This document shows positions 4,253-36,080 of a stretch of 58,165 bases of DNA, piece by piece. A model generated the notes under the pieces. That model was not told where the DNA came from. It made no database searches and saw only the letters and a list, made by a program, of their open reading frames with translations. The position numbers were made by a program, and so were the translations under genes. The stretch comes from Bacilli bacterium. GTDB taxonomy: Bacteria > Bacillota_I > Bacilli_A > RF39 > UBA660. Within the stretch, counting starts at the first letter, position 1. Each line of letters starts with the position of its first letter. The stretch covers positions 1 to 58,165 of the forward strand of contig JAQVWT010000002.1 in NCBI GenBank assembly GCA_028709545.1. The letters run 5' to 3'.

Positions 4253-4637
4253 TATTTGCCTCCTTTAAATTAAAAGCGTGAGGACATAAGTCACTGACTA
4301 GAAATTTTTCGTTCTTTCCTAAGCTATTATAGCAGAAAACAGTCGCATTTGCATCAAAGAATTCAACTAGCAACTGCCTACATAGAAAGCAAGGACGAGT
4401 TATTGTCTTGGTCTGTCCCATTACATGCATCTCTTTAAAATCAAAGTTAGTATACCCTTCAGCTATTGCTGATGATACTGCTACTTGCTCCGCACATAAT
4501 CCATTTTTAAATGATGCATTTTCAACATTTACCCCTAAAAATTCTTGACCATCTTTCATAACTACTATACAAGCTGTTTTAAAGTTAGAATATGGTGAAT
4601 AAGAATTTTTAATAATTAATTTTAAATTATCTTTCAT
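4242..4637 (-). CDS. cdd: Cytidine deaminase (homotetrameric type)
   Basis: YSPYSNF, CAEQ (Zn-Cys plus catalytic Glu) and PCFLCRQ (two Zn-Cys). Confidence 0.9.
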   Translation of the reverse strand: MKDNLKLIIKNSYSPYSNFKTACIVVMKDGQEFLGVNVENASFKNGLCAEQVAVSSAIAEGYTNFDFKEMHVMGQTKTITRPCFLCRQLLVEFFDANATVFCYNSLGKNEKFLVSDLCPHAFNLKEANNGK

Positions 4638-31006: not shown

Positions 31007-31026
31007 AATTATCCCAACTTTTTTCG

Positions 31027-31058
31027 GTGCTGAGAGGACTAAAGCCCTCTAACAGCAC
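31027..31058 (-). other. Conserved imperfect hairpin downstream of the target1 stop codon
   Basis: GTGCTGAGAGG-loop-CCTCT-aa-CAGCAC, with no following U-tract. Duplicated at 34495..34526. Confidence 0.5.
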
Positions 31059-31064
31059 ACCATC

Positions 31065-32192
31065 TTAACTTATTATTATGTATGGATCAGATATACTACC
31101 TGTTCCTGTTAGTTTTTTAACAGTAGATTTTAGATATAAAGAAGGACGCCCCCCGAACCCAATGCTCGCATAGTCATAGTCCACGTAGCCGCTAAAGTAC
31201 ACATACCACACACAGCTTGAGTATGACGAGTGCGGGACTAATGTCCACTCATATCCTTCTCCTCTTAACCATGCTTTCCCACCGCACATTGCACTACTAT
31301 AGCTTCCTAAACTGGTTGTTCTGGCACATGATGTTTCTAAAACAGAATATCCATAATCACTAGCATACATTAATCCTATATATCCACTTGTCTCTGTTGT
31401 CCCTCTTTCATCTGCATAAACAGCTTCTGCAGTTGACATCGAAGCTATTCCTCCTAGTTTCCATGTTACATTTTCTATCATTTCTCTATAATAATTACTT
31501 GTTATTCCAGTTTCTGTAAAATTACATACTCCTGGTATTGTAGTACTATATTGATAACAATAATTTAGACTTTCTTCATTGCTGCCATTGTAATAGTGAG
31601 TATTTAATAAATTATATAAAGATGATGCTGGCCAATCATTAGTATTACTCTTATCCCAAGCAAATGCTCCAATTGATGATCCTCTTATTATTTTAACTAA
31701 GTTTTCTCCTTCTTTTCCATGAGTACTTTCATCAAACACACCAATTATTCGCCAGAGTTCATTATTAAACATTAACCAGTTATCTGGGTTTTCTCCTTCA
31801 TAACGATAATCTGTTGCATCATATTGAATATCACCTACAACATACGACATCTCTTCAGCATATACACCATCATCATTTGTTAAACTCATTATATAAGCTG
31901 CTAGGTTTTCTGTAGTTTCAGTTGTAAAATTTAAAATACATCTTGCTTCATTATTAATATTTTTTATATTAAGTACCCAATCATCATAATCCCATGAAGC
32001 ATCCGCATTTTGACAAACACTCTTAATTTTAAAATTTCCTTTAGTAGGAATTGAGGATTGTTCTACTCCATCGACCATTACGGCAAGATATACATTATCA
32101 TCGTATAAAAAGTATTTATCTCTACTTTTTATATTTATTAATATTAGTGATATCACTAATATTAATAATCCTATTCCAATCTTTTTTTTCAT
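31065..32192 (-). CDS. DGR target protein 1 (signal-anchored surface protein with a variable C-terminal ligand-binding-type domain)
   Basis: N-terminal TM. The C-terminal ~280 aa is nearly identical to 34533..36080 except inside the VR. VR1 encodes ...LVPHSSYSSCVWYVYFSGYVDYDYASIGFGGRPSLYLK. Confidence 0.85.
   Translation of the reverse strand: MKKKIGIGLLILVISLILINIKSRDKYFLYDDNVYLAVMVDGVEQSSIPTKGNFKIKSVCQNADASWDYDDWVLNIKNINNEARCILNFTTETTENLAAYIMSLTNDDGVYAEEMSYVVGDIQYDATDYRYEGENPDNWLMFNNELWRIIGVFDESTHGKEGENLVKIIRGSSIGAFAWDKSNTNDWPASSLYNLLNTHYYNGSNEESLNYCYQYSTTIPGVCNFTETGITSNYYREMIENVTWKLGGIASMSTAEAVYADERGTTETSGYIGLMYASDYGYSVLETSCARTTSLGSYSSAMCGGKAWLRGEGYEWTLVPHSSYSSCVWYVYFSGYVDYDYASIGFGGRPSLYLKSTVKKLTGTGSISDPYIIIS
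31148..31241 (-). repeat. DGR variable repeat VR1 (94 bp)
   Basis: Colinear with the TR. Of 17 differences, 15 fall at TR adenines (coding strand). Confidence 0.9.
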
Positions 32193-32194
32193 TT

Positions 32195-32476
32195 TTAATC
32201 AGCAGTCCCTTCTATTTGCTTTATCATATTTATAAAAAATGCTCTTAATAAATATAACTGATAATTATTATCTTCATTTTCACTAATAAATTCTATTTCT
32301 AAATTATCTATTATAATATAATTAATTTTATTTTTTTGAAGATCCCTAATGTTTTTAAAATTAATAAAGTTTAATATTAATTTATCATAATTAAATGTGT
32401 GATATTTATCTTTCTTTTTGACTAAAAGTAAATAATTATTATATTTTCTTTTAAAAAATAAATATCTGTTTTTCAT
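32195..32476 (-). CDS. Small protein weakly resembling the MutS-domain-I-like gene at 34075..34467
   Basis: YLLLVKKKDKYHTFNYDKLILNFINFK parallels ALIIYKNNGKFYNVFDIDAYIFNILFNYK. Its stop abuts the target1 start. Confidence 0.35.
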   Translation of the reverse strand: MKNRYLFFKRKYNNYLLLVKKKDKYHTFNYDKLILNFINFKNIRDLQKNKINYIIIDNLEIEFISENEDNNYQLYLLRAFFINMIKQIEGTAD

Positions 32477-32636: not shown

Positions 32637-32730
32637 GCCCCCCGAACCCATTGTTCGCATTGTTATTGTTCACGTTGCCGTTATAGTTCACATTCCACAC
32701 ATTGTTCGAGTTAGACGAGTGCGGGACTAA
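32637..32730 (-). repeat. DGR template repeat (TR, 94 bp, non-coding)
   Basis: The minus strand carries 13 AAY codons in the VR frame (LVPHSSNSNNVWNVNYNGNVNNNNANNGFGG). It starts 31 nt after the RT stop, with a TAG just upstream in frame. Confidence 0.9.
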
Positions 32731-32761: not shown

Positions 32762-33739
32762 TTAATCCCAAATTTTATTAATTATTTTACCTATTTCATA
32801 TTTATTTGCAAATATAAATGAATTTTTATAATTCATAATACTAGAAAATTCTTCTTCCAGTGATAACAAATTATTTTTAGTTTCATAATTAAGTTTTTTT
32901 AGATTCTTTTCTATTCTCTTTTTTGTATCCGTACTTATTTTAATTATTGTTTTTTTGTTAATAATTTTAAAATTATAACCTAAGAACACTATCCCGTGCT
33001 TAATATTTCTAATATAAGTTTTTTTCTTATTTAATTCAATATCAAATTCTTTATTTAACTTCTCTTCGATTTTATATTTGTGTAGCTTTGATAAATAAAA
33101 TATAGCAAGAAACTGGGAAGAAAGATTACCAATAGGAATACCTTTACCATCTTTATATTCAGGAATTTTATTCGCGCCGTTTTTATTTACTTCAGTAATA
33201 TACTTTTTTATATAGTTTTTATTTGTACTGTCAATTACTTTTTCTACTAATAAATATTCATCCTTACTTAAATCTTTTCTTAACAGCTGTTTTAAAATAT
33301 CATGATTTATGCTATAAAAATATTTCGATAACTCAAACTTTAAAACAAAAATATCATTATGAATTTTATTTTTTTCTAAAAATTTTTTTAACATTTTTAT
33401 AGCATAACTTGTCCCCATTCCTTTTCTAGTTGCTGAATTATTTTTAAGCAAATACTTGCTTAATTTAGGCTCTAAAATATATCTTGTAATATAATGATTA
33501 ATTATCTTATCATATATATTTTGACTCATAATCAACCTTAATTTCGGTTTAGTTATTAAAAATAAATTATATTTGCCACCATCATATTTTCCATTTAATA
33601 AATTATCTCTAATATCAAGCAAATACTCTATTTTATGTAATTCAAATTTATATAATTTACTTTTATTCTTAACATTTTTGGAAATTTCATTATCATAGAT
33701 ATTAAGTAAATTTTCTAAAGTTAAAGAATCACTAAGCAT
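32762..33739 (-). CDS. DGR-type reverse transcriptase, apparently missing the YxDD box
   Basis: KPKLRLI, RKGMGT and IPIGNLSSQ (DGR hallmark) motifs, and FLGYNF. No YxDD anywhere in the ORF, and the motif-A position reads FELSKYF. Confidence 0.8.
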   Translation of the reverse strand: MLSDSLTLENLLNIYDNEISKNVKNKSKLYKFELHKIEYLLDIRDNLLNGKYDGGKYNLFLITKPKLRLIMSQNIYDKIINHYITRYILEPKLSKYLLKNNSATRKGMGTSYAIKMLKKFLEKNKIHNDIFVLKFELSKYFYSINHDILKQLLRKDLSKDEYLLVEKVIDSTNKNYIKKYITEVNKNGANKIPEYKDGKGIPIGNLSSQFLAIFYLSKLHKYKIEEKLNKEFDIELNKKKTYIRNIKHGIVFLGYNFKIINKKTIIKISTDTKKRIEKNLKKLNYETKNNLLSLEEEFSSIMNYKNSFIFANKYEIGKIINKIWD

Positions 33740-34088
33740 TATTACCTTCTTTATTCTTTTTCCAAGCTTTAACCATTTTTGTTATTTCTGTTAACAGATA
33801 TCCTTCTTTTTCAAGTTGTTTAAGAGATATGTACTTTTTTCTATATAATATTTCTAATAAAAAATCAAGAATGCTAATATTTTTTATAATATTTAAATAA
33901 TGAGTTTCAAAATCATCTAAATCAGAATTTGCTAGATATATGTTTTCTAATAAATCAAAAGTTGTAAGATTAATTTTTTCTTTTATAAAAAAATCTTTTC
34001 TAGGAATATTTTCCATTAAGTTATATAAATCTAATATAAACTTTTTTGTTTTTTTAGATATAATAAAATTATCATTAAAGACTCTCAT
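33732..34088 (-). CDS. avd: Accessory variability determinant (Avd-like four-helix-bundle protein)
   Basis: 118 aa, helical, with an IPRK motif near helix 1 and a basic C-terminus. Overlaps the RT start. Confidence 0.75.
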   Translation of the reverse strand: MRVFNDNFIISKKTKKFILDLYNLMENIPRKDFFIKEKINLTTFDLLENIYLANSDLDDFETHYLNIIKNISILDFLLEILYRKKYISLKQLEKEGYLLTEITKMVKAWKKNKEGNNA

Positions 34089-34467
34089 TAATAATATCTA
34101 TGATCCTTTCTAAATCATCAGCACTAGCAACCATTAATTTCTTATTAATTAAATTTAATTTATCATTCAATAAAATTTTGTTTTTTGCCTCGTTATAATA
34201 TTTAGAATAAGTATTAAATTTAAATTTTTTACCTTCGGCATCTTTATCTTTATAAATAATTTGATAAGAAATTTTCTCGTTTTCTATTGTATTTATAATT
34301 TTGTTTAAAGCATTGTCTGGAAATCCCGCTTTATTATTAATTACTTTATAATTAAATAATATATTAAAAATATAAGCATCTATATCAAAAACATTATAAA
34401 ACTTACCATTATTCTTGTAGATTATTAATGCTGTTTTTTTATTTTTATTAATATGCTTGGTAGACAA
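34075..34467 (-). CDS. MutS domain I (mismatch-binding)-like small protein, DGR accessory
   Basis: ALIIYKNNGKFYNVFDIDAYIFNILFNYKVINNKAGFPDNALNKIINTIENEKISYQII aligns by eye with E. coli MutS [30 protein letters not shown]...[25 protein letters not shown]. Confidence 0.6.
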   Translation of the reverse strand: MSTKHINKNKKTALIIYKNNGKFYNVFDIDAYIFNILFNYKVINNKAGFPDNALNKIINTIENEKISYQIIYKDKDAEGKKFKFNTYSKYYNEAKNKILLNDKLNLINKKLMVASADDLERIIDIINESL

Positions 34468-34494
34468 TTTTCTTCCTCCTTCTATTTTTTTTTG

Positions 34495-34526
34495 GTGCTG
34501 AGAGGACTAAAGCCCTCTAACAGCAC
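34495..34526 (-). other. Conserved imperfect hairpin downstream of the target2 stop codon
   Basis: Same sequence as 31027..31058. Followed by an A-run and the AGGAGG RBS of the next gene. Confidence 0.5.
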
Positions 34527-34532
34527 ACTTTC

Positions 34533-36080
34533 TTAACTTATTATTATGTATGGATCAGATATACTACCTGTTCCTGTTAGTTTTTTAACAGTAGATTTTA
34601 GATATAAAGAAGGACGCCCCCCGCACCCATTGCTCGCAGGGTCATTGTACACGAGGCCGGTACCGGACACAAGCCACACACTGATTGAGCTTGACGAGTG
34701 CGGGACTAATGTCCACTCATATCCTTCTCCTCTTAACCATGCTTTCCCACCGCACATTGCACTATTATAACTTCCTAAACTGGTTGCTCTGGCACATGAT
34801 GTTTTTAAAACAGAATATCCATAATCACTAGCATACATTAATCCTATATATCCACTTGTCTCTGTTGTCCCTCTTTCATCTGCATAAACAGCTTCTGCAG
34901 TTGACATCGAAGCTATGCCTCCTAGTTTCCATGTTACATTTTCTATCATTTCTCTATAATAATTACTTGTTATTCCAGTTTCTGTAAAATTACATACTCC
35001 TGGTATTGTTATACTATATTGATAACAATAATTTAGACTTTCTTCATTGGTTCCATTGTAATAGTGAGTATTTAATAAATTATATAAAGATGATGCTGGC
35101 CAATCATTAGTATTACTCTTATCCCAAGCAAATGCTCCAATTGATGATCCTCTTATTATTTTAACTAATTTTTCTCCTGTTTTTCCATGAGTACTTTCAT
35201 CAAACACACCAATTATTCGCCATAGTTCATTATTAAACATTATCCAGTTATCTGGGTTTTCTCCTTCATAACGATAATCTGTTGCTGGTTCATTATATAC
35301 ACCATCATCATTTGTTAAACTCATTATATAATCAGCTAGATTTTCTGTGTTTTCAGTTTTACTAGTTAAATTTATTTTCTGATCAGTACTATCTAGTGAG
35401 TTTATTGTAATACCCCCTAGTTTATAATTCCAAGTGGCACCTACAAAGTTAGTATTATATGAGCCTGATGGTTGATCTGGTATTTGAAGTGTTAAATTTG
35501 CTGGCATTGTTACTACTGAGGCTGTTACGGTTATTTTTGATTGAAAAGTTTTGTTTGCTCCCTGTTCAGTAGTTGTTGCCTCATCTACCCACAATCTTAA
35601 ATCAAATGTTGCAAAATCATTTGGAAATAAACTAGTTCCAGAGGAAATAGCATAGCTCGTAGCACCATCTATAGTAGGTGTTACTTGTGGGTTACTACTA
35701 AGTAAACTTGATGTATTATTAAGTGCTACTTTGACATAATCCGAGCTTAGAGTTGACACTGGCAATACTTCTAAGTTTATATCAAGTTCTGTATATACAT
35801 CACAGTTATTTGTTACTTTAAAAGTATATGGGGTTTTAGTCATACCTTCAGAGTCTGGTATAGGATACTCTCCTTCCAAGTTAATTGCATTTGTTACATC
35901 TGTAAAAGTTATATCTAAGCATTTTAAAGTATCTAGTTGATTAATACCTGATTGAGTAGCTGACTTTCGCCAGTAGGCATAGGAAATACTCAATATTATA
36001 ACTAGTAATAATATTGGTCCTAAAATAATTAAAAATTTTTTTGACTTACTATCTATCTTTTTCATAATTTTATTATACAA
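34533..36080 (-). CDS. DGR target protein 2 (signal-anchored surface protein, longer N-terminal region)
   Basis: N-terminal anchor plus ISYAYWR, Ig-like segments, and a C-terminal domain paralogous to target1. VR2 encodes LVPHSSSSISVWLVSGTGLVYNDPASNGCGGRPSLYLK. Confidence 0.85.
   Translation of the reverse strand: MYNKIMKKIDSKSKKFLIILGPILLLVIILSISYAYWRKSATQSGINQLDTLKCLDITFTDVTNAINLEGEYPIPDSEGMTKTPYTFKVTNNCDVYTELDINLEVLPVSTLSSDYVKVALNNTSSLLSSNPQVTPTIDGATSYAISSGTSLFPNDFATFDLRLWVDEATTTEQGANKTFQSKITVTASVVTMPANLTLQIPDQPSGSYNTNFVGATWNYKLGGITINSLDSTDQKINLTSKTENTENLADYIMSLTNDDGVYNEPATDYRYEGENPDNWIMFNNELWRIIGVFDESTHGKTGEKLVKIIRGSSIGAFAWDKSNTNDWPASSLYNLLNTHYYNGTNEESLNYCYQYSITIPGVCNFTETGITSNYYREMIENVTWKLGGIASMSTAEAVYADERGTTETSGYIGLMYASDYGYSVLKTSCARATSLGSYNSAMCGGKAWLRGEGYEWTLVPHSSSSISVWLVSGTGLVYNDPASNGCGGRPSLYLKSTVKKLTGTGSISDPYIIIS
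34616..34709 (-). repeat. DGR variable repeat VR2 (94 bp)
   Basis: Colinear with the TR. Of 20 differences, 16 fall at TR adenines. Confidence 0.9.

Follow-up and report, generated by a model that had tools for sequence, protein, structure and literature searches.

Why would a diversity-generating retroelement (DGR) keep within its own operon the mismatch-binding domain of the repair protein MutS, cut loose from the domains with which it normally works? The question is raised by a 58,165-nt stretch of DNA (hereafter the window) from a Bacilli bacterium (RF39; UBA660; assembly GCA_028709545.1, contig JAQVWT010000002.1) whose very AT-rich genome has a G+C content of 27.7%. A compact DGR occupies the minus strand of this window, in the order target gene 1, MSL, avd, reverse transcriptase (RT), template repeat (TR), orf93 and target gene 2. 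The MSL gene (34075-34467, minus strand) encodes a protein of 130 amino acids (aa), which a sequence-only reading of the locus had aligned by eye with domain I of MutS and had likened to a small accessory gene called 'MSL' in surveys of DGRs.

Identity and fold of the MSL protein

The product of the MSL gene was characterized by its open reading frame (ORF) call, Pfam, an AlphaFold2 model, Foldseek and alignment. Pfam MutS_I matches residues 6-80 over profile positions 10-92 (E = 8.8e-4, 19.9 bits), a score just under the gathering cut-off. A word-indexed search of a protein collection, which also contains an identical 130-aa protein, produced 18 relatives, 15 of which were aligned; 14 of the 15 match MutS_I on their own (best E = 4e-5), and the cut-off is passed by dozens of small frames adjacent to RT genes in related genomes. 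Sequence searches of the PDB were weak: the single MSL sequence found just weak matches to calcium-binding proteins, and the best match of the family profile was domain I of MSH6 (E = 0.058), with GKFYnvy.DA...GFP aligned to GKFYELYHMDA...GFP.

The question of the fold was settled by the structure search. In the AlphaFold2 model (mean predicted local distance difference test score, pLDDT, 90.4; predicted template modelling score 0.77), two long helices (residues 87-112 and 116-129) come after a beta-beta-alpha-beta-alpha-beta core. When Foldseek was run against the PDB, each of the top 50 matches was domain I of Escherichia coli or Taq MutS or of human MSH6 or MSH3, the best with E = 3.7e-4 and a root-mean-square deviation (rmsd) of 1.2 A over 59 columns, and the matches include entries of MutS mutated at E38 (1wbd, 1wb9 and 1wbb). 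In a viral structure library, the top matches were small, stand-alone gut-phage proteins annotated as 'MutS domain I'; at the sequence level, tblastn against 50,697 phage records gave no match and PHROGs assigned no family.

The likeness to MutS seen by eye is thus confirmed by profile and predicted structure alike, and MSL can be described as a predicted stand-alone MutS domain I fold with a family-specific C-terminal helical hairpin. More specifically, the domain I core spans approximately residues 12-80 and holds the wedge motif G21-K-F23-Y-N25 and the loop G48-F-P50, while residues 87-129 form the family-specific two-helix hairpin. The hairpin is the sole extra element, and the connector, lever/clamp and ABC ATPase domains (II-V) are missing, in line with the earlier remark that the protein lacks the ATPase and clamp parts of MutS. 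Also borne out was the observation that the Phe of the GxFYE motif is retained and the Glu is Asn: in alignment with the MutS of the host (GDFFE), MSL reads GKFYN, so that the Phe-x-Glu motif is incomplete, with Phe23 in place and Asn25 where MutS has Glu. The protein is basic, with an isoelectric point (pI) of 9.4.

A chance or compositional resemblance, of the kind that a very AT-rich genome might produce, would accommodate the single-sequence Pfam score just under the cut-off, as well as the calcium-binding proteins returned by the single-sequence PDB search. It does not accommodate the matches of nearly all aligned homologues to MutS_I, the RT-adjacent frames that pass the cut-off, structural matches exclusively to the MutS family, or motif residues conserved in register; this explanation is effectively refuted, and we give it hardly any credence.

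A constrained protein family

In an exhaustive profile search, 957 cluster representatives matched at E<=1e-3, and 338 of them did so at E<=1e-10. Without exception the 150 highest-ranking representatives are small proteins of 61-225 aa, and the majority of those that are full-length match the profile almost from end to end, C-terminal hairpin included. Across 141 representatives, the wedge Phe23 is present in 100% of the sequences that have a residue at that column, conservation of G48-F-P is 92-100%, and Y40, Y68, N85 and Y87 are each conserved at 90% or more; the column of the MutS Glu, on the other hand, is filled by Asn in 39%, by Tyr in 11% and by Glu in 8%. In MutS, this Glu is linked to discrimination and to ATPase signalling. 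On this pattern, MSL is a distinct and constrained family, which has kept the stacking residue and dropped the one that serves MutS in discrimination and ATPase signalling. The window MSL has all family-invariant residues intact.

The possibility that MSL is a piece of the host's mutS in the course of decay was also considered. It was ruled out by the intact 858-aa MutS that is encoded as a separate gene on contig C11 (a host MutL is present as well), together with the size and conservation of the MSL family, which possesses a C-terminal module of its own.

Linkage to diversity-generating retroelements

The association of MSL with DGRs was assessed in 121 sampled genomes of the taxonomic family of the host, which are metagenome-assembled genomes of about 1 Mb from uncultured gut/rumen 'Bacilli bacterium' organisms. 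DGR-type RTs occur in 54 of these genomes (about 45%), a high density for genomes of such small size. In the 54 RT-positive genomes, MSL loci were counted with the family profile and Pfam MutS_I, and related loci were searched with a 6-sequence MSL alignment. Forty-eight of 57 MSL loci are located at most 1.5 kb from a DGR RT, and the gap between the two has a median of 358 nt, which is approximately the length of an avd gene; another three are within 3.5 kb, and most of the last six are fragments or are placed at contig ends. Counted from the other side, MSL is found at 47 of 72 RT loci (about two thirds), and about a third have no detectable MSL. The order MSL-avd-RT is maintained in every relative with a long enough contig. 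One clear orphan exists, a 123-aa MSL (G364:C5:27012-27377; L028:1498-1869), with no avd or RT in the 3.4 kb inspected of its 39.6-kb contig; the RT of that genome is on another contig. Co-occurrence with DGR RTs, as well as a profile or structural match to MutS domain I, had been named in the sequence-only reading as ways of checking its proposal, and both turned out in its favour.

The genes of the cassette are also closely interlocked. In the window, MSL begins with a TTG start codon, 6 nt downstream of a strong Shine-Dalgarno sequence (AAGGAGGA; 34474-34481, minus strand, read from the sequence), and its 3' end overlaps the ATG of avd by 14 nt (34075-34088), exactly the overlap first noticed; the corresponding overlap is 13-14 nt in relatives L001, L004 and L007. 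The avd gene (33732-34088, minus strand; 118 aa) is recognized by Pfam bAvd (48.3 bits) and NCBIfam DivGenRetAVD, and overlaps the start of the RT gene by 8 nt; from MSL, the RT gene is about 340 nt downstream. A tighter connection still is seen in natural in-frame RT::MSL fusions with MSL at the C-terminus of the RT (G378:C35, G231:C29, G425:C8, G469:C58 at L052:2196-3728 and G490:C51 at L053:1614-3374). The complete fusions that were checked measure 510-586 aa, and avd is directly upstream of the fusion in three of the three loci checked. At another locus (G490:C8; L054), MSL, orf93, a further MSL, avd and RT follow one another consecutively.

The likeness to an MSL accessory gene proved correct. 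Wu et al. (Nucleic Acids Res 2018; PMC5758913) named the MSL accessory class, catalogued in 2017 and found in 16 of 372 DGRs ('Architecture D') as proteins of 112-283 aa, always with avd and never with HRDC, one of them in a Legionella DGR, while Macadangdang et al. (bioRxiv 10.1101/2024.11.15.621889) report Msl in three Bacteroides DGRs (Bfr, Bth and Bun). Judged by its sequence, the window ORF is a member of this known MSL/Msl family of DGR accessory genes.

State of the window cassette and a second DGR

Alignment of the 325-aa RT (32762-33739, minus strand) with four relatives (352-356 aa), together with the assembly, reveals an in-frame deletion of 32 residues that removes the ...CYMDD... 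box kept in the relatives, in addition to a Glu in place of their Asp in ...KFDL.... The 94-nt TR (32637-32730, minus strand; 29 adenines) was delimited by TR/VR comparison, VR being the variable repeat. In target gene 1 (34533-36080, minus strand; 515 aa; VR 34616-34709), 16 of 20 TR/VR differences are at TR adenines, as are 15 of 17 in target gene 2 (31065-32192, minus strand; 375 aa; VR 31148-31241). Remote VRs of the same TR exist elsewhere in the genome (C55:6437-6524, C52:22167-22255 and C33:116-204), each with 14 of its 16-18 differences at TR adenines, so the window TR has served at least five target genes. A T-to-A difference from the TR is common to all five VRs and a G-to-A difference to four of the five, a pattern that suggests drift of the TR since the last retrohoming.

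Because the RT of its cassette has lost the YMDD box, the window MSL is currently, as far as the assembled genes tell, carried along intact by a DGR with an RT devoid of the catalytic motif; for the same reason this copy adds little when taken alone. One could go further and regard MSL as a relic, i.e. a protein with no present function in this genome and with an ORF that has not yet decayed. Apart from the in-frame loss of YMDD and the probable drift of the TR, such a reading can draw on the frequency of RT pseudogenes in the family, where split or stop-containing RT genes are common (G196, G266, G435, G470, L047 and L051). But it describes the state of one copy and not the role of a family, it has to contend with family-invariant residues that are all intact, and it meets a second DGR in the same genome that has both an intact RT and an MSL of its own; we therefore consider it improbable.

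This second DGR is on contig C63 (C63:1-2312; locus L020) of the 1.15-Mb genome, and comprises a TR at approximately 63-199, a 123-aa MSL, an avd-like gene of 157 aa and an RT of 369 aa in which the YLRYMDD box is intact. Contigs C64, C71 and C35 carry VR-like copies, the one on C64 having 13 of 13 differences at TR adenines, and a 97%-identical copy of the upstream region is present on C6. The C63 MSL scores 43 bits against Pfam MutS_I, carries the motif GNFYI, and shares 29% identity with the window MSL over 68 residues (E = 5e-6).

A candidate shield for the heteroduplex

What could such a protein do for a DGR? The model that we favour, with a probability of about 0.4, is that MSL shields the heteroduplex formed during retrohoming from the mismatch repair of the host, one of the two roles put forward in the sequence-only reading. 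MSL is translated from one message together with Avd and RT, their reading frames overlapping, and would belong to the RT-Avd complex or be closely associated with it, physical cooperation with RT and Avd being what we infer from the conserved adjacency and the natural RT::MSL fusions. It would then travel with the mutagenised cDNA, and its Phe wedge would occupy the dense A-derived mismatches of the distorted cDNA:VR duplex. As a result, the host MutS-MutL system would be unable to restore the parental VR, and the yield of mutagenic retrohoming would rise.

The shield model is preferred because mismatch repair suppresses DGRs and because MSL has the sensor of MutS without its signalling parts. 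Shielding is plausible in this host since it has both MutS and MutL, and since published mutS knock-outs raise DGR output: in Bacteroides, VRs were mutagenised 5-10 fold more once the host mutS had been deleted, and the effect was all-or-nothing (bioRxiv 10.1101/2024.11.15.621889). In addition, a dominant-negative MutL boosts DGR output in E. coli, in a study that cites MutS-like homologues as its rationale (bioRxiv 10.64898/2026.07.21.739853).

Several points weigh against this model. Specifically, the window MSL itself falls 0.7 bits short of the MutS_I gathering cut-off of 20.6 bits, and scored 19.4 bits in the genome scan. Full-length MutS is present in 52 of the 54 RT-positive family genomes and thus near-universal, which makes a correlation between MSL and MutS uninformative. 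MutS domain I grips DNA jointly with the clamp domains, and we know of no established case of DNA binding by this domain alone. The constitutively active Bacteroides DGRs Bov and Bfi lack Msl, and the Msl-bearing ones are not constitutively active (bioRxiv 10.1101/2024.11.15.621889); Msl is therefore not needed for high activity in Bacteroides. No functional test of MSL was found in the literature searched. Finally, the RT::MSL fusion points to action at or near cDNA synthesis and not at the later heteroduplex.

This last point is at the heart of an alternative in which MSL is an accessory of the RT, binding the nascent TR-RNA:cDNA duplex, where it would stabilise A:N mispairs and so either aid extension or set the spectrum of misincorporation. 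In the natural fusions MSL follows the thumb domain, at the C-terminal end of the RT, and three RTs with MutS_I-like C-terminal extensions had already been described (PMC5758913). The tight translational coupling of MSL, avd and RT is also to be expected of such an accessory, as is a wedge in which the stacking Phe is invariant and the ATPase-signalling Glu is lost. The Bordetella phage bRT-Avd, however, carries out adenine mutagenesis with no MSL at all, the RT loci of the host family that lack a detectable MSL are difficult to reconcile with a general need for it in cDNA synthesis, and domain I of MutS is known for binding DNA duplexes, not RNA:DNA hybrids. An RT accessory consequently seems to us an unlikely role, if one that deserves to be kept in view beside the shield.

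A Phe-less paralogue and a hairpin after the target genes

Two further features of the cassette bear on a third possible role. The first is orf93 (32195-32476, minus strand; 93 aa), located downstream of the TR, which was characterized by profile, AlphaFold2, Foldseek and hhalign. In this protein KKDKY replaces GKFY and the G-F-P loop is deleted, and the MSL-specific N-x-Y motif is kept. The orf93 family (93-101 aa) is conserved in this DGR clade (L001:2916-3197, L004:5682-6020, L007:535-831 and L054:798-1103), at a position that varies: it either follows the TR or is immediately upstream of MSL and overlaps it. MutS_I is matched, weakly, by 5 of 11 members; the AlphaFold2 model (pLDDT 92) has its best PDB matches in domain I of MutS and MSH3 (probability 0.99, TM score 0.59, with a weak E of 0.09). 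A first profile-profile comparison of the orf93 family with a narrower MSL profile was negative (probability 0.2%), and hhalign with the broad 141-sequence MSL profile gave a probability of 94.6% (E = 7e-8). Based on this profile match and the predicted fold, orf93 is a truncated, Phe-less derivative of MSL.

The second feature is a hairpin, with which all five of the VR-bearing genes of the window TR end right after the stop codon. In this hairpin a TT bulge separates a 6-bp stem from a 5-bp stem that is capped by the loop GCTTTAGT. It is found directly 3' of the stop of target gene 1 (34494-34527, minus strand), with the same architecture after the stop codon of target gene 2 (31026-31059, minus strand), and at the remote targets (C55:6317-6350, C52:22047-22080 and C33:291-324); the relative L001 has yet another variant, the third, in which the bulge is CT (L001:816-849 and 4332-4365). 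Both stems are wholly different between the local and the remote copies. Among the three variants, compensatory double changes are seen at 9 of 11 pairs and 97% of cells are paired, with the bulge and the loop GCTTTAGT fixed. A covariance search was run over 22 family genomes. The model, which is a narrow one, found nothing comparable in 20 other MSL-bearing genomes; besides a partial match in G409 (E = 0.016) and a marginal match on contig C5, its matches were confined to the own genome. This exact form of the hairpin is apparently clade-specific.

Besides mismatches, domain I of the MutS type recognises small insertion loops, and for this reason the bulge of the hairpin is a conceivable MSL ligand, though no more than a lead. 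On that basis MSL, possibly with orf93, could be a reader of the target site that recognises distorted target DNA (the bulged hairpin or a cruciform being the candidate) and directs or licenses integration of the cDNA. The covariation just described, including the variant with the CT bulge, speaks for a structure that is maintained at the targets, and the mutual exclusion of MSL and HRDC (PMC5758913), HRDC being DNA-binding, would fit analogous roles in the handling of DNA. The failure of the covariance model to find a counterpart in the other MSL-bearing genomes tells against target reading as the function of the family; so do the targets of the C63 DGR, which has its own MSL and whose targets have no obvious hairpin in common. 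We see target reading as a rather doubtful account, on a level with the RT accessory.

Since orf93 is a Phe-less derivative of MSL, a more specific version can be formulated, in which the two proteins form a two-protein 'mini-MutS', delivered by RT-Avd, that reads the 2-nt pyrimidine bulge after the targets and acts as a target-site selector, not as an anti-repair shield. Such a pair would, speculatively, be asymmetric in the way that the MutS dimer or MSH6/MSH2 is. This combined version is a long shot, less probable than target reading in general.

What the possible roles would imply

The consequences differ with the role. If MSL is the DGR's own answer to mismatch repair, this would explain how dense mismatches come to be fixed in repair-proficient hosts, and, at about 130 aa, a true shield would make a compact extra part for DGR-based tools of directed evolution. 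If instead MSL reads the bulged target hairpin, it would represent a new way of choosing retrohoming targets. The host family, with its frequent DGR RTs, its MSL genes, natural RT::MSL fusions and Phe-less paralogues, constitutes a rich comparative set, and this material could help in the design of decisive experiments.

Comparison with known systems

Compared with the published MSL/Msl proteins, the window protein is alike in being small (130 aa, within the range of 112-283 aa), in its homology to MutS domain I and in its location inside a DGR cassette where avd is present and an HRDC gene is absent (no HRDC match at E<=1 among the six cassette ORFs). It differs in belonging to a divergent AT-rich subfamily and in scoring 0.7 bits under the Pfam cut-off. 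An indirect link to the published members is its 29% identity to the C63 MSL, which passes MutS_I at 43 bits. It is also basic, whereas published MSL proteins have a mean pI of 7.2 +/- 1.7 (PMC5758913). In contrast to the 16 of 372 DGRs of the 2018 survey, MSL is a near-standard DGR part in the host family (47 of 72 RT loci), and to the published MSL cassettes the window adds the second, short, Phe-less paralogue and an RT without its catalytic motif.

MSL has the same fold as domain I of MutS and MSH6 (PF01624; PDB 1e3m, 1wbd and 2o8b), with an rmsd of 1.2-2.6 A across 59-78 residues. It also shares with them the wedge strand G-x-F-Y, in which the Phe stacks, the D-A with which a helix starts, and the loop G-[FIV]-P. 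Where it departs from these proteins, the connector, lever, clamp and ATPase domains are all absent, its subfamily is without the N-terminal helix, the Glu of Phe-x-Glu is Asn (and Glu in just 8% of the MSL family), and the C-terminus has gained a two-helix hairpin in which an N-x-Y motif is conserved. A domain I detached from the ATPase and put to use by a mobile element is known as well from the giant multidomain proteins of mobile elements, in which it is usually found alongside ArdC-N and has been proposed to bind and protect the DNA of the element. There, however, domain I is one module among others, whereas MSL is a stand-alone protein of 130 aa in a retroelement operon.

The HRDC proteins of Treponema-type DGRs offer a parallel in position, as they too are small nucleic-acid-binding accessories beside a DGR RT. 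Their fold is unrelated, and MSL-containing DGRs always have avd, whereas roughly half of those that contain HRDC do not (PMC5758913). The mutual exclusivity of the two nevertheless suggests that MSL and HRDC fill an analogous niche in their respective retroelements.

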